From NCBI GenBank assembly GCA_942491115.1, contig CALNZV010000019.1, positions 42,142-106,141 of the forward strand: a stretch of DNA of 64,000 nt, given 5' to 3'. Both the position numbers and the translations under genes were made by a program. Source of the stretch: an uncultured Desulfobacteraceae bacterium. Its GTDB lineage: Bacteria; Desulfobacterota; Desulfobacteria; Desulfobacterales; UBA5852. The notes under the pieces were generated by a model. The model saw only the letters and a list, made by a program, of their open reading frames with translations, did not search any database and had not been told where the DNA came from. Below are positions 3,531-52,237 of the stretch, one piece after another. Position 1 is the first letter of the stretch. Each line of letters starts with the position of its first letter.

Positions 3531-3599
3531 CGGTATTGGCTCCTGTTATTGTTGTTGGCGACAGATAGACGGTGGTGGCGGGTTGGAAATCATGCGGCA

Positions 3600-4553
3600 T
3601 CAGGCCCCGGCATTGGACCTGAACCAGTCATAGGTCCGTTTCAGTCCGGCTTCGAACGCCACGGCGGGTTCAAAGCCCAAATCACCCCTGGCCCGCGAGG
3701 TATCAGCGACAGAGTGTCGGATATCCCCTTCCCTTGCCGGCATGTAAGATGCCGACACGTCCAGGGCCGCCAGGGCGGCCACCCGATGCCACAGGTCGGT
3801 TACAGTGATCGAGCCGCCGCAGCCGATGTTGTAAATCTTACCGGGAGATCCGGGAGCGACGGCGGCAGCCAGATTGGCAGCAACCACATCCTCAACGAAT
3901 ATGAAATCCCGGCTCTGCTCTCCATCTCCGAAAATGACCGGCGCCTCCCCCTTCGTCGCCCGCTCCATGAAAATGGAAATCACTCCCGAATAAGGGGAGG
4001 AGGGATCCTGCCGAGGTCCAAACACATTAAAATACCTGAGGCACACCGCTTCGAAACCGTATAGGCGATGATATAGATCGGCATAATACTCGTTGACCAG
4101 CTTCTGGAGCGCGTAGGGGCTTAACCACCCCGGGTCCATGGCCTCATGTTTGGGCAGTGTCGGATCGTCGCCGTATACCGCGCTCGAACTGGCCAGGACC
4201 ATGCGTTTGATTCCGTGGCGTCTCGCTGCGTCCATCACTTTCAGGGTACCGATCTCGTTGACCTCCGCAGAACCCGTCGGATCCTTGACGGAAAGGGGCA
4301 CGGACACGACCGCTGCCTGGTGAAAAACAAGGTCCACGCCCCTGACGGCGGTATCGACAGCCTCATCATGACGGATATCGCCTTTGATAAACTCGATACG
4401 TTGACCGAATGGAGCCAGATTCTCCATTTTCCCCGTGATGAGATTGTCGATCACTTTCACTTTGGCGCCGCGTTCCAGAAGTCCTGCCACCAGGTGAGAC
4501 CCGATGAAACCCGCGCCACCGGTGACCAGGGCGCACTGACCGTTGAATGGCAT
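3600..4553 (-). CDS. NAD-dependent UDP-sugar 4-epimerase/dehydratase (extended SDR)
   Basis: LVTGGAGFIG, FHQAA, SSSAVYG, YALQK, RYFNVFGPRQDPSSPYSGVI. Confidence 0.92.
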   Translation of the reverse strand: MPFNGQCALVTGGAGFIGSHLVAGLLERGAKVKVIDNLITGKMENLAPFGQRIEFIKGDIRHDEAVDTAVRGVDLVFHQAAVVSVPLSVKDPTGSAEVNEIGTLKVMDAARRHGIKRMVLASSSAVYGDDPTLPKHEAMDPGWLSPYALQKLVNEYYADLYHRLYGFEAVCLRYFNVFGPRQDPSSPYSGVISIFMERATKGEAPVIFGDGEQSRDFIFVEDVVAANLAAAVAPGSPGKIYNIGCGGSITVTDLWHRVAALAALDVSASYMPAREGDIRHSVADTSRARGDLGFEPAVAFEAGLKRTYDWFRSNAGA

Positions 4554-4868
4554 AAATCGTCGTCCTTGAGTTGGGAGTGTTCGATGCCGGAAACGGTTGA
4601 CCGATTGAGGCGAAAACTGAGGCAGTCGCCATCCCGTAAATGCGGACGTCGACTCCCAAGCGAGGGTGGCGGCAGATCAGGGAGGGTTGACCCGCCATCC
4701 GGACTTGGCGGTCAACCACCGCAGACCGGGCCACCCACGGTACCCGTCTCCTAACAGAATTCCACATTCCGCACAACCGGAAGACGCTGAACGAGTCGCC
4801 GCCGTTGCCGGGAGTCCACCGTGATATGACATTCCGTTGCAATCGGAAGAGGAATCATCGAAATCACC

Positions 4869-4897
4869 TTGACTAAGCGTACGATCATTTTTAGTCT
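4869..4897 (+). promoter_or_regulatory. Candidate sigma70 promoter for the moaD/thiF-like pair
   Basis: TTGACT-N17-TAGTCT upstream of the ORF at 4924/4948. Confidence 0.5.
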
Positions 4898-4923
4898 TCA
4901 GGAGGTAAAGTCCACCGAAACCC

Positions 4924-5181
4924 ATGCCCTCTAGCCCAAGATGCCCTATGAAAACGATTATCGATGTTCGACTATTTGCCACACTGACCCAGTACCTACC
5001 CGTGGATTCCGACAAAACGCCCATCCCTGAGGATGCCACCGTGCTGGACGTCATCCGCTTTCTCGGGATTCCGGAAGCAGACGTCAAACTGGCCTTTGTC
5101 AACAGCGTTCAGGTCTCCTTAGATACGGTTCTCCACAGCGGCGATCGACTCGGGCTCTTCCCTCCTGTCGGAGGCGGATAA
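4924..5181 (+). CDS. MoaD/ThiS ubiquitin-like sulfur carrier (alternative start 4948)
   Basis: VRLFATL...GDRLGLFPPVGGG, C-terminal Gly-Gly. Confidence 0.9.
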   Translation: MPSSPRCPMKTIIDVRLFATLTQYLPVDSDKTPIPEDATVLDVIRFLGIPEADVKLAFVNSVQVSLDTVLHSGDRLGLFPPVGGG

Positions 5182-6051
5182 ATGGCCGATTTGGATCCCG
5201 GCGAGGCCTGCGGCAAAGCAGCGGAGGAAAATCGATTTCCTGACGGCGAGCCCTTTCTCCGACTGAGCACGGTCGAGAGCCAGTTGATTGCCGAAGCCAC
5301 GGGTTGCCATGCACGGGATGTGGATAACGCCGCCCTGGGTCGCGGCATCCTGCCCGAGCGGTATGAACGCAACTTCAAGTCCCTATCGGCCCGGGAGCAG
5401 GCCGGACTTCTCGCCTCCAGGGTTGCCGTGATTGGCCTGGGCGGGCTCGGAGGGACGGTTGTCGAAATTCTTGCCCGGACGGGAGTAGGGTTTCTTCGCC
5501 TGGTCGACGGTGACCGGTTCGAGGGTCACAACCTGAACCGGCAGTTCCTATCCTCGATGAACACGATTGGCCAGCCGAAAGCCGATTCAGCCAGAGACCG
5601 AATTGCATCGATCAATCCCTCGGTCCTCTGCGATGCCCGGCCCATCTTCATGACACCCGAAAACGCCAGCGACCTTGTCAAAGATGTTCACCTCGTCGTG
5701 GACTGCCTCGATACCATCACTGCCCGGTTCCATCTTGAGGCCGCCTGCAAGCAGTGTGGGGTCCCCCTGGTGTCCGGCGCTATCGCAGGCGCCTCCGGTC
5801 ATGTGACGGTGATATTTCCGGAGGATTCGGGTCTCCGGCAAATATATGGTGATCCCCACTCCGCGAACGTTAGAGGGGCTGAAGCCACTCTCGGAACCCT
5901 GGCCATGGCCGCTAGTCTCGCCGCCAGCCTCGAAGCCACAGAAACCATTAAAATCCTCCTCGAACGACATTCCACTCTAAGACACCGCCTGCTGATCTTC
6001 GACCTGATGGCCGGTCTTTTCGAAACGGTTTCCCTGGCCGATACGGACTGA
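5182..6051 (+). CDS. ThiF/MoeB/HesA E1-like adenylyltransferase
   Basis: RYERN, VIGLGGLGG, LVDGD, NLNRQ, DCLD. Starts immediately after the MoaD/ThiS stop. Confidence 0.9.
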   Translation: MADLDPGEACGKAAEENRFPDGEPFLRLSTVESQLIAEATGCHARDVDNAALGRGILPERYERNFKSLSAREQAGLLASRVAVIGLGGLGGTVVEILARTGVGFLRLVDGDRFEGHNLNRQFLSSMNTIGQPKADSARDRIASINPSVLCDARPIFMTPENASDLVKDVHLVVDCLDTITARFHLEAACKQCGVPLVSGAIAGASGHVTVIFPEDSGLRQIYGDPHSANVRGAEATLGTLAMAASLAASLEATETIKILLERHSTLRHRLLIFDLMAGLFETVSLADTD

Positions 6052-6818: not shown

Positions 6819-7610
6819 CTATTCCGAAGATGGATGTCTGACGGTTGACCAGCGATCGGACAACCAGCGGGCCCCCCGCTCTATCCATCCCACCGTTTCC
6901 CAAAGAAACCGAGTGAGCCGGTCAGCGGCCGATAGGGGTTCAGGCAGGGTCAGGGATTGTGTTTCCGGGGATGGCGCCGTCACGGCAGACCGAAGGGCAT
7001 GGATCCGCTCGATGTGTTCCGCCCATCCCGGCTGATCCGGATACTGGGAATCAAGCGTCTCCCAGATGGCCAGGCTGTGTCGGGCAAATCCCTTTTCCTC
7101 CAAAGCGATGGCGCATCGTTCGAGAAGACCCGAGCCTATCGACTCTCCGGAAATGCGGTTTGAGAAAAAAGTGTCCACCGACAACGCAATGGTCGACGGG
7201 GGATTCAACCGTGCAAGGCATTCCATTACCGGATCGATGAGCAGCATCGCCGGAAACCGCTTCTCCAGCAATAGGGCAAATTCCTTTAGGGCCTCCTCAT
7301 GACAGCCGATCTGATATAACGCCCCCCCGCAGATCAGATGATCCCTGCTGTTGTGGTGCCCCCCCCAGCCGGATCTTAGGGTTTCCATTTCATCCTCGGT
7401 CATTCGGCAGTAGGGATCGATGTCGGCGGATTCCATGGCAAGGTCGATGCCCGCCATTCGCTGACGGATGCTATCGCGGATCGACTCCGGCAGGCCCGAG
7501 GCCGAATTCAACAGCCCCTCGTACAAGGCCATGGCCTCCTTGTGAAGGCCCTGGGCGAAATAGATTTCAGCCTCTTTTTTGGTCAGCGCAACCGTCAATT
7601 TACTGCTCAT
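6819..7610 (-). CDS. Hypothetical helical-repeat (TPR-like) protein
   Basis: EAEIYFAQGLHKEAMALYE and GGALYQIGCHEEALKEF TPR-like helices. Coherent composition. Confidence 0.6.
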   Translation of the reverse strand: MSSKLTVALTKKEAEIYFAQGLHKEAMALYEGLLNSASGLPESIRDSIRQRMAGIDLAMESADIDPYCRMTEDEMETLRSGWGGHHNSRDHLICGGALYQIGCHEEALKEFALLLEKRFPAMLLIDPVMECLARLNPPSTIALSVDTFFSNRISGESIGSGLLERCAIALEEKGFARHSLAIWETLDSQYPDQPGWAEHIERIHALRSAVTAPSPETQSLTLPEPLSAADRLTRFLWETVGWIERGARWLSDRWSTVRHPSSE

Positions 7611-44248: not shown

Positions 44249-44797
44249 TTACCTCAGAAGGTAGGATTTGGGGCCGAAGGGAACCGGATGATAGTCCTCT
44301 TCGGTGATCTCTGGCTCGACCTCAGGCGTCATCAAAACCACCTCCGGTTCAATATCCGCAATGGACTCAACGACGGATTCGGGCCCCTTCGACTGACGGG
44401 ACGACGGCTCCTGCCGCTGGTATCTGGCCAGAAACGTTTTGGGCAAAGGGGATCGATTGGTGACCAGACGGACGGGAATCAGCACTTTGTCTCCCACGAC
44501 GACCCGCGAATTCACCAGCCACGGGGTCGCCTCGACCAGAGCCGGCCAGTTCCGATAATCCCCTGTATACCATTTGGCAATAATGGAGAGGGTTTCACCT
44601 GGCCACCGTATCTGGTGGATCAAGTGGGGGCTATTTTTCGTCGACGATTTACCGGTCGTGGTGCCAGCAAGGGGAGCCGCAGGTACCGCCTCCGGCGGCG
44701 AGAGTTTTGGTTTGAGCATCGAACAGCCGACCATCACCGATAGGAGCGCAGCGGTGACAAGAAGACGGCACGTTCGGATCTCTGCTTTCCCGGTCAT
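44249..44797 (-). CDS. Small lipoprotein with LysM-like domain and Pro/Glu-rich tail
   Basis: Lipobox MVGC; PGETLSIIAKWYTGDYRNW..VVVGDKVLIP. Confidence 0.8.
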   Translation of the reverse strand: MTGKAEIRTCRLLVTAALLSVMVGCSMLKPKLSPPEAVPAAPLAGTTTGKSSTKNSPHLIHQIRWPGETLSIIAKWYTGDYRNWPALVEATPWLVNSRVVVGDKVLIPVRLVTNRSPLPKTFLARYQRQEPSSRQSKGPESVVESIADIEPEVVLMTPEVEPEITEEDYHPVPFGPKSYLLR

Positions 44798-46560
44798 TTG
44801 GGCGCCTTATCCTCGCCGCGAAGCCGGTGAAGGTAGGTCACGGCTTGACGATTATTCGGATTGACCTCGACGGCGAGGGCCAACTGACGGATGGCCATTT
44901 CTCGCTTTCCACGTTTTTCCTGCACCATTGCCAAGTTATACAGGGCTTCGTCCAGATAGGGAGGTGCCATCTCCACCACCTGGAGATAGCGCTTCTCTGC
45001 TTCGGGGAGTTGCCCGGATTCCGCATATGCATAGGCCAAATTGAAAACAGCGTTATGCAGGCTGGGATGATTATCGACAACTTGAGAAAAAACCTCAATA
45101 GCTTGAGGGTAGGACTCCAGACGAACGTAGGCATAGCCGAGATTGAAAAGCAGTTGTGGGTCGTCGGGCGCCATCAACAGGCCTTGCTTCAAGATATCGA
45201 CCGCTGCGGAGGGATTCGATTCCAGAAGCTCCGAGGCCTGCTCCAGAACAAGTGAAATGCTTGCCTTCTCTTGATCACTTGCGGTTTCTTGGGACTCTGA
45301 AAGGGTCTGTCTGCGGTCGCCAGCAGGCTTGATGTCTTCCACTGTACCCCGGATCGCATAGGCGCTGGGGCTATCACCTACAGAATAACTGGTTAGCCGT
45401 TTCGACACGACCATGAACAATCCGATACCGATCGCCAGGCAAACCACCATCACCGGCAGATAGCGACCCCTAAACCGACGGTGCCACTCCTCGACAACAC
45501 CCGGCGACACCATGGTCACCGTACGACCGGCCTCGTCGCGAGCCCTGTCCGACATCAGGGCGATGGAGGCGGCGGTATCGGAACTGACAGACGTTTTTAG
45601 GGGCATCATCAGCGAGAGCGCGCGGTCTTCCTCTCGCTTCGTTTCGTCGAACTGGCTTCGAACGAACTGCCCCAACTGACGGGTGTCGGAGCGCTCCGGC
45701 AGCGCTTCGATACAGTTTTCCAAATCGGAAAGCATCTCTCCACAGTCCGGATAACGGTCCTCCGGGTTCCGGGCCAGAGCCCGATCCATCACTGGGTGGA
45801 GCCCCGGGGGCAATCCGGGTGTCGTAACCGCCGCCGACACATACCGAGCGGTTCTGACCTGCTCAAGGATCTCCAGAGGATTGCCCTGGAACATCCGTTT
45901 TCCCGTCACCAGTTCATAAAGCAGGACCCCCAGGGCAAAAACATCCGACCGCCTGTCCACCGGTTTCCCCGTGGCCTGCTCCGGTGACATATAGGCTGCC
46001 TTGCCCTTGATGACACCGGATTGGGTACAGGAACTCCTGCCGGCGGCCTTGGCGATACCGAAATCCAGAATTTTTACCAACCCTGAATAGCCAATGAACA
46101 CATTTTGAGGGTTCACGTCCCGGTGGACGATTTGCAAACCCTGCCCCTTGTAGTCGGTCAGGTTGTGGGCGTAGTCGAGGCCTGCACAGATCCGTGAAAT
46201 CACGTGAAGGGCGTGCTTCAGCGCCAGAGGCATGCCGTTTTGACGACAGCAGTCCATGACCTGTCGAAGATCTTTGCCAACCAGATATTCCATGGCCATA
46301 AAGTACCGGTTCCCCATGCAGCCGAAATCATAAATCTGAACAATATTTTCATGCTGAAGAAATGCGGCCAGTTTGGCCTCGTCGATGAACGACTCGACCA
46401 CTTCCGGTTGGGCACAGAACTGGGGAAGAATGCACTTGATGGCCACCAGCTTTTCAAACCCCTGGTCGCCGGTAATTTTCCCTAAGAACAACTCTGCCAT
46501 ACCGCCGACGGCAATCCGTTCCAACAACTGGTATTTCCCGAACTGGGTGATTTGATCCAT
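44794..46560 (-). CDS. Hanks-type Ser/Thr protein kinase with TM helix and C-terminal TPR repeats
   Basis: IAVGGMAELF, VAIK, HRDVNPQN, DFG, GKAAYMSPE, DVFALG; TM YLPVMVVCLAIGIGLFMVVS; TPRs FNLGYAY, FNLAYAY, YNLAMVQ. Confidence 0.95.
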   Translation of the reverse strand: MDQITQFGKYQLLERIAVGGMAELFLGKITGDQGFEKLVAIKCILPQFCAQPEVVESFIDEAKLAAFLQHENIVQIYDFGCMGNRYFMAMEYLVGKDLRQVMDCCRQNGMPLALKHALHVISRICAGLDYAHNLTDYKGQGLQIVHRDVNPQNVFIGYSGLVKILDFGIAKAAGRSSCTQSGVIKGKAAYMSPEQATGKPVDRRSDVFALGVLLYELVTGKRMFQGNPLEILEQVRTARYVSAAVTTPGLPPGLHPVMDRALARNPEDRYPDCGEMLSDLENCIEALPERSDTRQLGQFVRSQFDETKREEDRALSLMMPLKTSVSSDTAASIALMSDRARDEAGRTVTMVSPGVVEEWHRRFRGRYLPVMVVCLAIGIGLFMVVSKRLTSYSVGDSPSAYAIRGTVEDIKPAGDRRQTLSESQETASDQEKASISLVLEQASELLESNPSAAVDILKQGLLMAPDDPQLLFNLGYAYVRLESYPQAIEVFSQVVDNHPSLHNAVFNLAYAYAESGQLPEAEKRYLQVVEMAPPYLDEALYNLAMVQEKRGKREMAIRQLALAVEVNPNNRQAVTYLHRLRGEDKAPK

Positions 46561-46759
46561 AATCAGGCACCGGATCCGTCGAAGGCAGTTTGCGAAAATT
46601 TAAAGTATATCAGAGGGGTTAAAGCACGTCAAGCCGACGGCGCCCGCCATTGGTTCGACATCGGCCGGGAGCGACGATTCTCCGGTAGAATGGCCTTTTC
46701 AGCGCTGATACGGGTTTAAAAAAGCAGGCGGGCGGGCCGGGGGGATGTCATCGGGCCGG

Positions 46760-47869
46760 TCACGGAACCGGGGCGGCAGGTTGTTTTTTCTTCAGCGCCC
46801 TTAAGAGCTCTTTGGCTTCCCTGATGCTGGAGGCGGCTTTGGAATGGTCCGGATTGTAAACCATTGCTTTTTCCCATTCCTGAATCGCCAATTCCAGCTC
46901 TTCGTCAATAAAGTACTTGACCCCCAACCGATAGAACTCCTCGGCCATGCCATCCATCATCGTCTCGAGACTGTCCATGGAAGACTTGAGATCGGGCCAA
47001 CCGGCATCGATTTTTCTTAACAGCGACATGGCCTCTGGGTAACGTTTTTGAAACCGCAAGCGCTTGGCCTCTTCAAAAAGCGAAGCGTGGTAGATCCATG
47101 CGGCCTCGGTATTCAAAGGGCTCGCCTCCAATAGATGACCCGCAGCCTCGGCTGCGGCCTCATAGCTGCCGTCCTCAAAGAGCCGGCGAGCGCTTTGGAG
47201 GTCATCCTCAGTAACGGTTTTCTTTGGGGATTTCGGTAATGTAGGTATCCGACGGGTCCTTGGGACCCGAGGTGGCGTCTCAGGGGACGACGGCAGTTCC
47301 ATTCTCGGGATCCGAAGCAGGGTACCCGGTGTCGGTTGCACCGATGGATCCAAATCATTGAATCTGGCGATAAGGACGGCCTTCTTTCCGTCACCATAGT
47401 AGCGTTGCGCCAAAGACTCGAGGGTTTCCGCGGAACCGATGACATGATCGTCATAACGCGGTTCTTCGGCGATTCGATACAAATATGACAAGGCTTGCTT
47501 GTGCTCTGAGTTGATGCGCAGCGCCGTCAGAAATTCACGACGGGCAGTGGTTGTATCTCCCTTTTCCGATGCCAAGACCCCACGTTGGAAGTGCCGGTCG
47601 GACTGCAGGAGAACTTGATCCTTCAAACGACCGATGTTGGCGGAGGAATCGGGATCGACCGGATCGAGAGACCCGATGACACTCCAGGTCAGCAAGGCTG
47701 CCTCCAAATCGCCTTCGCGCTCGAATGCAGCAGCGTTCTCGCGGTATGCGGTGAGGGTCTCCGGATCCGCATGCCATGACGATACCGGTACGTTTTGGAG
47801 ATTCGCACATCCGGCCCAAAGGAGGCCCGCAAGGGTGGCTGCAGCTATAAGGCGCAGTGGAAGACTCAT
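46760..47869 (-). CDS. Lipoprotein with TPR - LysM - TPR architecture
   Basis: Lipobox WAGC; TPRs HFQRGVLA, FYRLGVKYF; LysM AETLESLAQRYYGD..IARFN..PGTLLRIP. Confidence 0.88.
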   Translation of the reverse strand: MSLPLRLIAAATLAGLLWAGCANLQNVPVSSWHADPETLTAYRENAAAFEREGDLEAALLTWSVIGSLDPVDPDSSANIGRLKDQVLLQSDRHFQRGVLASEKGDTTTARREFLTALRINSEHKQALSYLYRIAEEPRYDDHVIGSAETLESLAQRYYGDGKKAVLIARFNDLDPSVQPTPGTLLRIPRMELPSSPETPPRVPRTRRIPTLPKSPKKTVTEDDLQSARRLFEDGSYEAAAEAAGHLLEASPLNTEAAWIYHASLFEEAKRLRFQKRYPEAMSLLRKIDAGWPDLKSSMDSLETMMDGMAEEFYRLGVKYFIDEELELAIQEWEKAMVYNPDHSKAASSIREAKELLRALKKKQPAAPVP

Positions 47870-48888
47870 TCAGAATCGATCGGTTTGAATGTCTTGATCA
47901 GGTTAAGAAATTCACCGACCTCCATGGTGGGTGTCACGATGGTTCGTCCCAGTCGATACCGGTCTCTGAAAAACGGGGGTGGCCTGCCGTCGGTCGTGAA
48001 AGCGGCCTCGTACCCGGTTTTTTCGGCAAAAGCCGCCGATAACGATGACCCGGCACCGGACGGGTAGGACAGAAAACGACACGGCCTGCCGATGTTCTCC
48101 TCGATGGCGGTTTTGGATCCAACCAACTCCAGTTCAAGGTTGACCAGATACGTCTCAAATGCTTCGCCCGGTTCCGGATTGGCGAATGTCAAACGGCTCC
48201 GACCCCGACTTTGAATGTCAACCCCATTGGCCGACAGTTCTGAGAGCTGTTCCCAGGTCAGATGACCTTCCGAACCGACGCGATCGGTCTGAACGAACAA
48301 GGAAACAGGATAGCCGAACTGCCGAATGACAGGATAGGTATGCATAAAAAAACCAGCGTGGGGATCATCGAAGGTAATGACGAGTGACCGGCTGGGAAGC
48401 CTGGTTTCGAATTCTAGAAATTTCAGCAACTGGGGAAGAGAAATGACCGTGTAGTCAAAGGTTCGAAGGGCGGACATCTGCCGTCGAAATTGGTCTTTCA
48501 GACGGCTGTCAGCCAGCGGATCCGACACCTCCGGCCATGAATAGACAAATATGGGCACCAACTGATAGCCGTTTTCTACCACCCCGCCCATTCGGTAGGG
48601 TCTGAGAGGAATCAAAAGGGTCTGTCCCGGCGTCAGTACCTGTGCCCGATTGAACTCTTTGACAAACCATGACAGGGACGGGTCTTTCAGGTAGCGAAGG
48701 GCAATGGAGGAGAAGGTGTCGCCCTCCTCCACCTTGGCGATCAGAAAATCAGACGGCGGTGTCACTTCCCGGGGCATCATGCAGGCCGTCAGCCAGATGC
48801 ACGCCCCCAGAATTGTTGCCGTCATTAGTGGACGATAGAGCAATCTCCACCTCTCTGCCGGCAGGCGATCATCGCAGGGTGAGGGCAC
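47866..48888 (-). CDS. Lipoprotein with LysM and a NodB/PgaB-like polysaccharide deacetylase domain lacking the metal-binding His residues
   Basis: Lipobox LTAC; GDTFSSIALRYLKD..FN..PGQTLLIP; ITFDDP, LTWEQLSEL, IQSRGRSR, LSYPSG. Confidence 0.88.
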   Translation of the reverse strand: MPSPCDDRLPAERWRLLYRPLMTATILGACIWLTACMMPREVTPPSDFLIAKVEEGDTFSSIALRYLKDPSLSWFVKEFNRAQVLTPGQTLLIPLRPYRMGGVVENGYQLVPIFVYSWPEVSDPLADSRLKDQFRRQMSALRTFDYTVISLPQLLKFLEFETRLPSRSLVITFDDPHAGFFMHTYPVIRQFGYPVSLFVQTDRVGSEGHLTWEQLSELSANGVDIQSRGRSRLTFANPEPGEAFETYLVNLELELVGSKTAIEENIGRPCRFLSYPSGAGSSLSAAFAEKTGYEAAFTTDGRPPPFFRDRYRLGRTIVTPTMEVGEFLNLIKTFKPIDSE

Positions 48889-50533
48889 GGTAGATGGCGA
48901 CCGGTTCCGACCGCCCCCTTAGTTCCTGAAGCGGCATGGCCTCCACATTGACCAACGCCTTTACCCCGTCATAAACCGATTTTGAAATGATGGTATCTCC
49001 GGATCCAGCCATGGCATTTATTCGGGAGGCAACATTGACGGCATCACCGATGACGGTATATTCCATTTTGCTTGCTGAGCCGATATTGCCTGCAACGACG
49101 ACTCCGCTGTGAACACTGATGCCCACGGATCTGAGAAGATCCTTTTCACTTCCGACTGTTGAAAGGGAGCGTTGAATTTCGATGGCTGCCACGACCCCTT
49201 TTGCCCTGTGGTCGGCACTATAAACCGGCACCCCGAAAACCCCCAGAACCGCGTCTCCGATGAACTTATCCACATAGCCGCCGTTTTCAATGATGACACG
49301 AGTGGCAATTTCAAAGTATTCGTTGAGTTCCTCGACGAGAGCCGCAGGATCTTTTCCCTCTGAATAGCTGGTAAACCCTCTGATGTCAGCAAAAAGAATA
49401 GTGGCCTCGCACAAACGACCCTTTAACCACGCACTGCCCGGGCTGGCAAGGATCATGTCGGCCACCTGACTGCCAACGTATTTGCCGAAGGATTTCTGCA
49501 TGAGTTGGTTTCTGAACAGCTCCTCACTCATGCGGTTGAAAGCAGATGCCAAATCGCCGAACTCGTCATTTCGTCCGAGCTCGATCCGATGACGGTAATT
49601 ACCCCTTCCGATTTCCTGGGTAGCGTTGACGAGGCGGAACAACGGGTCGGAGAACCAAAACCCCATTACAAAGGTAATAATGAGGCCGGCGAATATGACC
49701 GGAAGCGTCATCATGAGAAGGGAATCCCGTTCCTGGCGAATACTCGTTTCGATGGAGTCAATGGACACCCCCACATGGGCAAAGCCCATTAACTTGTCTT
49801 TGAAACGGACCGGTTTTTCCAGGTTGAGAATGCCGGCACCTGAAGGGAGGCGGTATGTGAAAAAGGACACTTCCCCCAACTCCTGCCGGGAAACCGTCGG
49901 CGCCACCGGATCATACCGGTTTCCCAAGCGATCCAGATCGCTATGGGCCCGAATGATGCCGTCGGAATCGATAATCAAGGCGTAGGCAAGGCCTTCGACC
50001 GCCTTGACGTCGTTGATGAGCGAATTAAGCTTGAGCTCATTCCCTTCCAGTAAATGAATTCTCGCCGCATTGGCAAAGTAGTTCAGGCTGATGGCACCAA
50101 TCATCACCGACTGGTTGTAAAGACGCTCTTTTTGATGCTTCAATATAAAATAGCTCGACACCAGCACCACCGTCGCCATCATCACCGCTGCGGTGGTGGT
50201 CAGCTGCACCCAAATGGGAATACGGGGCCGGCGCCGGAACCCCAAACCAGCCCCTTTATCGGTCCGGAAATAATCACGATTGATCGTCGGCAGCTGTGTA
50301 CCGTCATATCCGCAAAACGTCCGTAAAATGGATAAGGCCGCGCTTTTCGATATCCACCCTTTGTCCACCGCGTGTTGGCTCAGCGCCTTGGCCTTTGGCC
50401 CGGACTCGCCATGGCGCTCTTCCTTCAATGCCTTGAGCTGGTCCTCCGAGACGAGGCCGGTCATCAGCAGTCCGTTTTCAAAGGCGATTTCGATCTTATT
50501 CACGTCGCCCGCGCCGGAGCTTCCATCAGACAT
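48869..50533 (-). CDS. Membrane class III adenylate cyclase (N-terminal helical domain, TM-sensor-TM, HAMP, cyclase)
   Basis: HAMP PLFRLVNATQEIGRG..DEFGDLASAFNRM; FADIRGFT, DKFIGDAV, EYTVIGDAVNVASRI. Confidence 0.93.
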   Translation of the reverse strand: MSDGSSGAGDVNKIEIAFENGLLMTGLVSEDQLKALKEERHGESGPKAKALSQHAVDKGWISKSAALSILRTFCGYDGTQLPTINRDYFRTDKGAGLGFRRRPRIPIWVQLTTTAAVMMATVVLVSSYFILKHQKERLYNQSVMIGAISLNYFANAARIHLLEGNELKLNSLINDVKAVEGLAYALIIDSDGIIRAHSDLDRLGNRYDPVAPTVSRQELGEVSFFTYRLPSGAGILNLEKPVRFKDKLMGFAHVGVSIDSIETSIRQERDSLLMMTLPVIFAGLIITFVMGFWFSDPLFRLVNATQEIGRGNYRHRIELGRNDEFGDLASAFNRMSEELFRNQLMQKSFGKYVGSQVADMILASPGSAWLKGRLCEATILFADIRGFTSYSEGKDPAALVEELNEYFEIATRVIIENGGYVDKFIGDAVLGVFGVPVYSADHRAKGVVAAIEIQRSLSTVGSEKDLLRSVGISVHSGVVVAGNIGSASKMEYTVIGDAVNVASRINAMAGSGDTIISKSVYDGVKALVNVEAMPLQELRGRSEPVAIYRALTLR

Positions 50534-50865
50534 ACCATTCGCTCTCTATCATCATTGAGGGTACGACGTTATTCCTTGGGCCGATCGGTGACGTATCGCA
50601 CGGGCGGTCGAGCCATTAGCGCAGGCGCCGGGGGGTTGATGATCGACACCAGCAGCAATGCGGGTCGGCCGGGGACCGGGAGATGGACCGAACGGTTGAC
50701 GGTCATCCCGAAATCGATCAGGTGCGCGGCGTCGACATCGATATTGGAGCAAATGAGGTGCCCCCTGTCCTTATCCAACCTAGTTTTACTATCGGATGGC
50801 CGATGGGCTGTCAACGGACAAAGGCCCAGGTAATCTCCCGGTTCGTCGACTGACGGGGGACCGGT

Positions 50866-51738
50866 TTATTCGGATTCATGGGGCTGTATTCCCGTTTCGA
50901 TAGTGCTGAGGCATCGACTCAGGCAAAGGAATTCCTCCACGGAAAGGGTTTCCGCCCGCCGGGTGGGGGAAATCTGCGCCATGGAAAGGGCATCCGTTAT
51001 ATGATCCTGCCATTCGGGGTGACCGGCGCCGGCGAGGGCATTCTTCAGGGTTTTCCGTCGCTTGGAAAAGGCCGATCGAACGACCTCGAAGAAATGGTTT
51101 TCTTGGGATTCCGTCATCCTTTCGGTATCAGCGAATTGTATGTCAAGGACGGTGGAGTTCACCTGGGGTCTTGGAAAAAACCGCGATGCATCAACGCCCA
51201 TCAGCTTTGAAACCTGGGAGCAGTATTGAAGTATTACCGAAATTCGGCCATAATCTTTGCCACCCGGCGCTGCCAGGAGGCGGTCTGCGAGTTCCCTCTG
51301 GAACATGAACACCGCCTTTCTGAACCGACGACGATAGGCGATCAAGCGAAGGACAATCTGGGTGGAAATGCTGTAGGGAAGATTGCCGACCGCTACCCAT
51401 TGCCCGCCTTCCGGCTCCGGCAGGTCGTCCATCGATAACTTCAAAAAGTCGGCCTGCCGGATATCCACATTGTCCAGACCGGCCAGGGTCAGTTCCGCGC
51501 TCAACAGGCTGATAAAACGAGCGTCCTTTTCAATGGCAACAACAGAGTGGACAGCGGTTGCAAGGGGAACGGTCAGCGCCCCCAAACCCGGTCCGATTTC
51601 TAGCACGCGATCGGTCTCAGACAAGCGTGCTTTCTTCACAATGGTTTCTGCGACGGCGGTGTCGCACAGGAAATTCTGCCCCCATCGCTTTTTGGCTTTG
51701 AGGTCCCAGGCTTTGAGCAACACTCGAGGCGAAGTCAT
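50866..51738 (-). CDS. rsmA: 16S rRNA m6,2A dimethyltransferase KsgA
   Basis: KKRWGQNFL, LEIGPGLG, EKD, GNLPYSIST, FQRE, FFPRPQVNS, RRAETLS. Start set at the ATG at 51738. Confidence 0.96.
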   Translation of the reverse strand: MTSPRVLLKAWDLKAKKRWGQNFLCDTAVAETIVKKARLSETDRVLEIGPGLGALTVPLATAVHSVVAIEKDARFISLLSAELTLAGLDNVDIRQADFLKLSMDDLPEPEGGQWVAVGNLPYSISTQIVLRLIAYRRRFRKAVFMFQRELADRLLAAPGGKDYGRISVILQYCSQVSKLMGVDASRFFPRPQVNSTVLDIQFADTERMTESQENHFFEVVRSAFSKRRKTLKNALAGAGHPEWQDHITDALSMAQISPTRRAETLSVEEFLCLSRCLSTIETGIQPHESE

Positions 51739-52237
51739 CGGCAGCGATCCTTGGAAGCAGAGGGGAGCAGCATCAGGGGCTTTCCGCTGGCGGACCCAGG
51801 GGCGCATTGGGGGTCTTCGGGTGCATCATCCGTTAATCAACCTCTCGCAACAGCGACAAGGGAGTTGTCACCCGGATTGCCGGACGGGGTTGCTTCATCT
51901 TCAATCGGCTCCAATCCGTTATTCATATCGGTTAAGTCAATAGGATGCAAGAACTACTCATCGAATCTCATCGGAATCATTTTATATATTCTCCATGCCG
52001 CCTTGACTTTGATCCCCGTATTAAGTAATCAACGTCAATACCGGCATCGCCGACTAGAATACTCGTACAGCCGTCTCCGAAGTCATATGCGTGGCTGCCA
52101 AGGACCAGCGGAAGTACCTTTTTTCTATCCAGAGCTGCCAATTCAACCGGTAATTGATACCATGGCGGATAAGCCATCGACAGAATGCGGCAGCACGATC
52201 CCCTAAAGGATGAAATTCACTACAAGGAGGAAATTGG

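Follow-up and report, generated by a model that had tools for sequence, protein, structure and literature searches.

A LysM-NodB2 lipoprotein without catalytic histidines: candidate non-catalytic co-sensor of a predicted adenylate cyclase in an uncultured Desulfobacteraceae bacterium

Members of the NodB2 subgroup of the CE4 (NodB) deacetylase family carry a motif set in which MT5, 'VLMYH' at the N-terminus, holds the catalytic-acid His, MT1, 'TFDD', supplies the catalytic base and the metal-binding Asp, MT2, 'HTxxH' or 'H(T/S)xxxH', supplies the two metal-binding His, and MT3 reads 'AYPYG'; in these proteins an Arg is supplied from another part of the chain (PMC10967932). Here we describe a protein of this type, encoded at positions 47866 to 48888 on the minus strand of a 64,000-nucleotide stretch of DNA (the window) from an uncultured Desulfobacteraceae bacterium (contig CALNZV010000019.1 of assembly GCA_942491115.1). 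It is a circularly permuted PgaB/IcaB-type NodB2 CE4 protein, it has lost its catalytic histidines, and its gene follows directly on that of a membrane class III cyclase. The explanation that we favor, and hold to be fairly probable from sequence comparison, is that the window protein is a non-catalytic peptidoglycan- or glycan-binding co-sensor partner of this cyclase, acting with a LysM-TPR lipoprotein encoded next to it.

In both fold and sequence the window protein is closest to the PgaB N-terminal domain, IcaB and PplD, which are active NodB2 de-N-acetylases. All share a topology with an N-terminal catalytic-acid motif, the TFDD pair, (A/S)YPxG and a late Arg, but the window protein lacks the catalytic-acid His and both metal His, has a predicted LysM domain and a lipoprotein anchor, and sits in a cyclase operon instead of an exopolysaccharide operon. 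Bacillus anthracis BA0330 and BA0331 and B. cereus BC0361 are, like the window protein, NodB2 lipoproteins (Foldseek matches 4v33 and 4hd5), and no deacetylase activity is detectable in any of the three. Peptidoglycan binding and a non-catalytic mode of action have been reported for BA0330 and BA0331 (PMC4505593), which form a precedent for a non-catalytic, peptidoglycan-binding NodB2 lipoprotein. However, in the Bacillus proteins the Asp-His-His Zn site and the catalytic His and Asp are intact, and zinc is bound by BA0330 (PMC4505593), whereas the His residues are replaced in the window protein. They also have an Fn3 accessory domain where the window protein has LysM, belong to Gram-positive hosts and show no cyclase linkage.

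Persistence of the domain after loss of its residues is known from the CE4 pseudoenzymes BA3943 (7bkf, deposited as 'a CE4 family pseudoenzyme'), BA0150 (4m1b) and E. cuniculi EcCDA (2vyo), the last of which lacks both MT2 His (PMC10967932). These three are classed with the non-permuted, classical NodB type (PMC10967932), match the window protein only distantly (Foldseek E about 1e-4) and, in contrast to it, have neither a LysM-lipoprotein architecture nor a signalling-gene context. As both CE4 pseudoenzymes and CE4 lipoproteins without activity are already on record, a dead CE4 domain alone is not new in kind. The logic proposed here, in which a lipoprotein of the periplasm informs a signalling protein of the inner membrane about the envelope, is also that of the outer-membrane lipoprotein co-sensors RcsF, with the Rcs phosphorelay, and QseG, with QseE (PMC11709261, PMC6075780). 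This is an analogy only: RcsF and QseG have no sequence or fold kinship with the window protein, and the output here would be a class III adenylate cyclase, not a histidine kinase.

The features of the gene that bear on catalysis and localization are the following.

47866–48888, minus strand: LysM-NodB2 (CE4-like) lipoprotein gene, 340 amino acids counted from the GTG start
48781–48888, minus strand: signal peptide and lipobox L-T-A-C (Cys36), read from the sequence
48607–48735, minus strand: LysM domain, residues 52–94, a borderline Pfam PF01476 match
48538–48543, minus strand: Y116-S117, replacing the 'YH' catalytic-acid motif (MT5), from the alignment
48361–48375, minus strand: TFDDP (MT1), with D174 and D175 kept and Gly changed to Pro, from translation and alignment
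48193–48207, minus strand: R228-G-R-S-R232, replacing the H-T-K-S-H metal-binding motif (MT2), from the alignment
48055–48069, minus strand: SYPSG, replacing AYPYG (MT3), from translation and alignment
47944–47946, minus strand: R315, the late Arg conserved in 94–100% of rows in both intact and degenerate groups

When the window protein was aligned with 41 full-length relatives, the family consensus VPxLxYH / T(F/I)DDG / QCHTKSH / AYPYG / YRxNR was found to be matched by FVYSW / TFDDP / QSRGRSR / SYPSG / YRLGR; the three-dimensional placement of these residues rests on alignment to solved NodB2 structures. The reference residues in BA0330 are His150, Asp205/Asp206, the Zn ligands His264/His268, and Arg343 (PMC4505593). 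Of the Asp-His-His metal triad only D175 is present, as R228 and R232 occupy both His columns, the same columns as His264/His268 of BA0330. The catalytic-acid column holds Ser117; all 117 family rows with a complete catalytic set have His there, and the clade of the window protein has S, Q or R. Thus three of the five catalytic and metal residues are replaced (S117, R228, R232), while both Asp of TFDD are retained. The catalytic-base Asp, D174, is conserved, as is R315; the two are paired by alignment, and R315 probably corresponds to the Arg in the last strand of BA0330, which touches the catalytic Asp there.

A sequence-only reading of this DNA had noted the TFDDP, SRGRSR and SYPSG motifs and proposed a pseudoenzyme in which both metal-binding His are changed to Arg. 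The positions that it gave agree with the translation (ITFDDP at 48361–48378; QSRGRSRL at 48190–48213, with the R228 codon at 48205–48207 and the R232 codon at 48193–48195), and both Arg stand in the His columns. The pseudoenzyme call is upheld by the alignment and is stronger than first stated, because the catalytic-acid His, which that reading had overlooked, is replaced as well. The loss of catalytic residues is demonstrated by these comparisons, and it is very unlikely, as judged from the residues present, that the window protein acts as a metal-dependent deacetylase.

The assignment to the NodB2 subgroup follows from the family consensus VPxLxYH standing before TFDD, with which the fold matches agree. 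An AlphaFold2 model computed from a 42-sequence family alignment (mean predicted local distance difference test score 84.8) has as its top Foldseek matches in the PDB the PgaB N-terminal domain, PplD, IcaB, BC0361 and BA0330 (entries 3vus, 6dq3, 4wcj, 4hd5 and 4v33; E about 1e-15 to 1e-14). Polysacc_deac_1 (PF01522, CE4/NodB) matches residues 165–295 with 47.5 bits (2.2e-12; cut-off 23.1). The NCBIfam models for PgaB (TIGR03938; 60.6 against an equivalog cut-off of 321.9) and IcaB (TIGR03933; 39.2 against 248.35) give weak, partial matches. That the protein is a lipoprotein is read from ...WLTAC at residues 32–36, and its relatives have the equivalents L(T/A)(G/S/A)C. The LysM match (PF01476) scores 19.5 bits (9.6e-4) against a cut-off of 20.9 in the window protein, exceeds the cut-off in the relatives P0122 and P0145 (28.7 and 32.1 bits), and its columns D57, A63, L67, N80, G88 and P94 are conserved in degenerate and intact members alike.

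Four neighbouring genes lie on the same strand.

48869–50533, minus strand: membrane protein with sCache_3_2, HAMP and class III cyclase domains (Pfam; best solved relative 2w01)
46760–47869, minus strand: TPR-LysM-TPR lipoprotein (Pfam), whose ATG overlaps the CE4 stop (ATGA, 47866–47869)
44794–46560, minus strand: Ser/Thr protein kinase with a C-terminal TPR region after a hydrophobic stretch (Pfam and NCBIfam)
44249–44797, minus strand: 182-amino-acid lipoprotein with a LysM-like segment (open reading frame), whose start overlaps the kinase stop

The cyclase stop and the CE4 GTG start overlap by 20 nt (48869–48888). In an alignment to 2w01, which was deposited as 'adenylate cyclase', the metal Asp and the transition-state Asn and Arg are present, so that the window cyclase looks catalytically competent. 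Lys (in DKFIGD) and Thr occupy the base-specifying positions, a combination that we take to be that of an adenylate cyclase, and this activity is predicted for the window protein's neighbour. We define a module as a Cache-cyclase, a LysM-CE4 and a LysM-TPR gene that follow one another on the same strand and either overlap or are separated by short gaps; with the junctions at 48869–48888 and 47866–47869, the window locus is such a module. The 182-amino-acid lipoprotein at 44249–44797 had no match in a Pfam search, and an open reading frame of 169–183 amino acids occupies the equivalent position in the orthologous loci L001–L003, where the five-gene order of the window is repeated. A PgaB/IcaB orthologue in an exopolysaccharide locus was ruled out, as the scores fall far below the equivalog cut-offs, and no pgaA, pgaC or pgaD-type genes were found among the open reading frames examined at 44249–51807.

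The module is widespread. A HMMER search gave 142 representative clusters at E <= 1e-30, and a scan of species-representative genomes gave 562 relatives, from which 80 loci were retained, chiefly from Thermodesulfobacteriota, notably Desulfobacterales, with some from Nitrospirota and others. The order cyclase, LysM-CE4, LysM-TPR was found in about 75 of these 80 loci, frequently with overlapping coordinates, and a Ser/Thr kinase lies near the module in 26 of 85 loci scanned. Distant members also have a Cache-cyclase before them and a TPR protein after them, as is the case for P0036 (intact site) and P0010 (first His changed to Gln only). In several species the LysM-CE4 and TPR-LysM-TPR parts are fused in one polypeptide of 580–930 amino acids (L007, L012, L030 and L076, and P0124, P0135, P0145, P0159 and P0174); proteins that are fused in some species are classically taken to be physical or functional partners. 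Comparison of the loci thus establishes a strict gene order, natural fusions and what the overlaps indicate to be translational coupling. A search of the literature turned up CE4 pseudoenzymes but no account of a cyclase/LysM-CE4/LysM-TPR module; the module appears undescribed, although absence there is no proof.

Two loci deserve separate mention. In L009, one open reading frame (3534–5315) matches both the cyclase catalytic and the CE4 domains; it may be a genuine fusion or a frameshift in a metagenome-assembled genome, and as the latter may be the case we did not use it. In L005 (650–12533), a module with an intact CE4 stands amid dense cyclic-nucleotide signalling genes, encoding two cyclic nucleotide monophosphate-binding proteins, a PP2C phosphatase, an FHA-cyclase and a class II-type phosphodiesterase.

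Because the gene belongs to a module headed by a membrane adenylate cyclase, a non-enzymatic sensor partner is the most likely role. We suggest that the window lipoprotein would reside in the periplasm as a LysM domain joined to a PgaB/IcaB-type CE4 barrel that no longer performs metal-dependent deacetylation, and that it and the downstream LysM-TPR lipoprotein may form an accessory sensor bound to peptidoglycan or another glycan. Through contact of the lipoprotein pair with the periplasmic Cache domain of the HAMP cyclase encoded upstream, the output of cyclic AMP (cAMP) would be adjusted to cell-wall state. In this scheme the former active site would persist as a binding pocket, here lined with Arg, and the neighbouring TPR Ser/Thr kinase is possibly involved too. 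A sensor role beside the cyclase had been put forward by the sequence-only reading, and it gains strong comparative support from the roughly 75 of 80 ordered loci, from the CE4-TPR fusions and from a concentration of catalytic loss in cyclase-adjacent copies.

This concentration was seen when all loci with readable upstream context were compared. At least one catalytic substitution occurs in 57 of 95 cyclase-adjacent copies against 2 of 24 non-adjacent copies, and 43 cyclase-adjacent copies have at least two. Within the family of the window organism, all cyclase-adjacent copies are degenerate and all non-adjacent paralogues, of the 'GSHTxTHS' type, are intact. Both kinds are present in the cultured Desulfosarcina alkanivorans PL12, which has a degenerate cyclase-coupled copy (T|DT|RG, 'ACRGRSGR') and an intact paralogue clustered with genes for PP2C, a Ser/Thr kinase, a Cache-like protein, TPR-LysM and FHA. 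From these patterns, catalysis appears to have been repeatedly dispensable precisely in the cyclase-linked lineage.

Several points weigh against a non-catalytic co-sensor. The Fisher p of about 5e-6 for adjacency against loss comes from a test that ignores phylogenetic non-independence, and the 80 loci were picked with a profile built from cyclase-type members. All catalytic residues are present in about 40% of the cyclase-adjacent copies; it is thus quite possible that the enzyme of the ancestral module is active, and the pocket could have different roles in different lineages. That the genes are adjacent indicates functional linkage without giving its direction. Finally, loss of the metal ligands does not strictly rule out catalysis: the conserved RGRS loop could serve other chemistry, and a NodB-fold protein, 3CL6, is described as non-metal-dependent (PMC10967932).

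Without exception, the CE4/TPR pair is found linked to signalling proteins; one subfamily goes with a cyclase, the other with kinase, PP2C and FHA proteins. A wider interpretation, which we offer as tentative, is that LysM-NodB2 and LysM-TPR constitute a modular periplasmic sensor of cell-wall state that plugs into different transducers, and whose pocket has repeatedly been turned from enzyme to receptor in the cyclase lineage, in the window protein with the Arg-rich R-G-R-S-R loop. One subfamily would then feed the Cache-HAMP adenylate cyclase, and the paralogous one the clusters of Ser/Thr kinase, PP2C and FHA genes. In the loci sampled the pair is found mainly in Thermodesulfobacteriota and also in Nitrospirota.

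The rival that fares best, though we find it unlikely, is that the window protein is a purely structural envelope lipoprotein, which tethers or stabilizes peptidoglycan and is co-transcribed with the cyclase while feeding it no information. Lipobox, LysM and NodB2 fold are all in keeping with such a role, and BA0330/BA0331, which bind peptidoglycan and have no detectable activity, do stabilize the wall (PMC4505593). But the gene is placed right after the cyclase, often translationally coupled, and this is kept across several phyla; the paralogous subfamily stands in kinase, PP2C and FHA clusters, and the invariable link to signal transducers is left unexplained, as is the reason why catalytic loss tracks cyclase adjacency.

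Of 220 aligned near-complete family members, 117 have the H|DD|HH set and 103 have at least one substitution. A FastTree tree computed without the five catalytic columns places the window protein in a 6-row clade (support 99) nested in a 36-row clade whose members are all degenerate (support 98); the intact/degenerate label needs at least 13 changes on this tree, 7 of them forced by starred branches, which puts the number of losses of catalytic residues at a minimum of 7–13. In an IQ-TREE analysis under the posterior mean site frequency (PMSF) model with 90 rows, the 6-row clade has a support of 100, and a 14-row all-degenerate clade (support 96) unites it with a Desulfosarcina clade. The clade of the window protein is old, with a degenerate active site in all its members. 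At MT2 the 14 rows read R (13/14), G (13/14), R (11/14), S (11/14), then R or G-R, and the sub-clades of this group are deeply diverged. With R-G-R-S conserved to this extent, the former metal site is a conserved Arg-rich loop and not random sequence. We found no description of such a replacement loop, or of clade-scale, repeated and context-specific catalytic loss, in the literature searched.

Conservation of R-G-R-S over deeply diverged sub-clades also speaks for a second rival, a neo-enzyme, in which the pocket (D174, D175, R315 and the R-G-R-S-R loop) would have been rebuilt for a metal-independent reaction or for a different substrate, which would probably be anionic. About 90% of degenerate members keep the first Asp and R315, and metal independence has its NodB-fold example in 3CL6 (PMC10967932). 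Nevertheless we consider a neo-enzyme improbable. Within one clade the place of the general-acid His is taken by residues as varied as S, Q, R, T, A and P, the pocket columns are variable and not re-fixed over the wider degenerate clade, and the sister Desulfosarcina clade no longer has the second Asp. The conserved R-G-R-S loop lends partial support to the earlier suggestion that the Arg substitutions might favour anionic ligands. Binding of GlcNAc polymers, which had likewise been suggested, is an assumption drawn from the LysM domain and the CE4 fold.

In a large cyclase-coupled subclade the sole change is that of the first metal His to Gln (QTKTH), and the rest of the catalytic set is intact; this subclade includes L004, L006, L009–L012, L015, L024, L028, L042, L044, L055 and others, and the change may reflect altered metal binding instead of full inactivation. 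The sister group of this subclade shows an additional change of His to Tyr at the catalytic acid. In L079, on a contig labelled Christensenellaceae (Bacillota), the module is near-identical in type to that of the Desulfosarcina clade (A|DT|RG), and this is probably a mis-binned contig, not a true occurrence in Bacillota.

Columns of the 36-row all-degenerate clade were compared with those of the 117 rows that have the full catalytic set. Conservation has dropped solely at catalytic and pocket columns (H117, D175, G176, S179, T196, Y200, H228, H232 and Y277), whereas the LysM residues, the GYQxVP linker motif, the NPFF motif, D174 and R315 are still conserved in the degenerate clade. The five closest homologues (P0001–P0005, 49–89% identity) all lack the three His and read Y(S/Q/R)W, DDP, (R/L)G(R/L)(S/A)R and YPSG. 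A 159-amino-acid fragment from another assembly (P0121) is 100% identical to residues 182–340 of the window protein, and two genomes of the same genus have SRGRSR and SRGLAR at MT2. With these homologues, the fragment and the same-genus genomes carrying the same substitutions, chance or sequencing error is excluded. The ratio of nonsynonymous to synonymous substitution rates (dN/dS, Nei-Gojobori) is 0.17 against the 89%-identical orthologue (dS 0.33), which indicates purifying selection, and 0.13–0.18 against more distant orthologues, for which dS is saturated. The sequence-only reading would have been refuted by orthologues that keep the His; close orthologues lack them. That the changes reflect decay in a single strain, a pseudogene, or a mistake in sequencing or assembly is hardly credible given an intact reading frame, this dN/dS, an identical fragment in another assembly and substitutions common to orthologues of 49–89% identity and to same-genus genomes. 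A live paralogue of the same family, which could explain relaxed selection, was not found in the window genome: it has a single member of the LysM-CE4 family, and it also encodes two canonical CE4 genes unrelated to that family.

To our knowledge, little is known of what binds to the periplasmic sensor domains of class III adenylate cyclases in bacteria, and the way in which peptidoglycan state is reported to the cytoplasm is poorly understood in diderms outside the enterobacteria. The module is a concrete, widely conserved and testable candidate for envelope-to-cAMP sensing and, if the co-sensor role holds true, it would be an envelope-to-cAMP pathway of a kind that we did not find in the literature searched. 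It also offers a clade-scale case of an enzyme fold that may have been repurposed for binding or regulation, in which the loss is repeated and tied to a specific genomic context. As closely related loci hold intact, half-degenerate or fully degenerate versions of one partner protein, they amount to a natural experiment, and the hypothesis can be put to the test because cultured D. alkanivorans PL12 has both the degenerate cyclase-coupled copy and the intact paralogue.

Some details of the paralogous clusters and of the window gene may be added. The intact paralogue CE4 genes lie at 6928–8022 in L098 (D. alkanivorans PL12) and at 6976–7995 in L099 (Desulfatitalea), and the clusters of intact-site LysM-CE4 and TPR-LysM genes in these two loci contain genes for a Ser/Thr kinase, PP2C and a double-FHA protein. 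In Desulfatitalea the cluster adjoins a VipA/VipB-like type VI sheath gene. The arrangement is reminiscent of a regulatory cluster for type VI threonine phosphorylation, and the CE4/TPR pair would be its periplasmic input. For the window gene, the start codon is ambiguous (GTG 48888, TTG 48843 or ATG 48825), and the lipobox Cys is identical for all three. The GTG falls inside the overlap with the cyclase stop; the TTG is preceded by GAGAGGTGGAGA and would give a signal peptide of about the same length as in relatives; and the ATG is the start chosen by another annotation (P0001).

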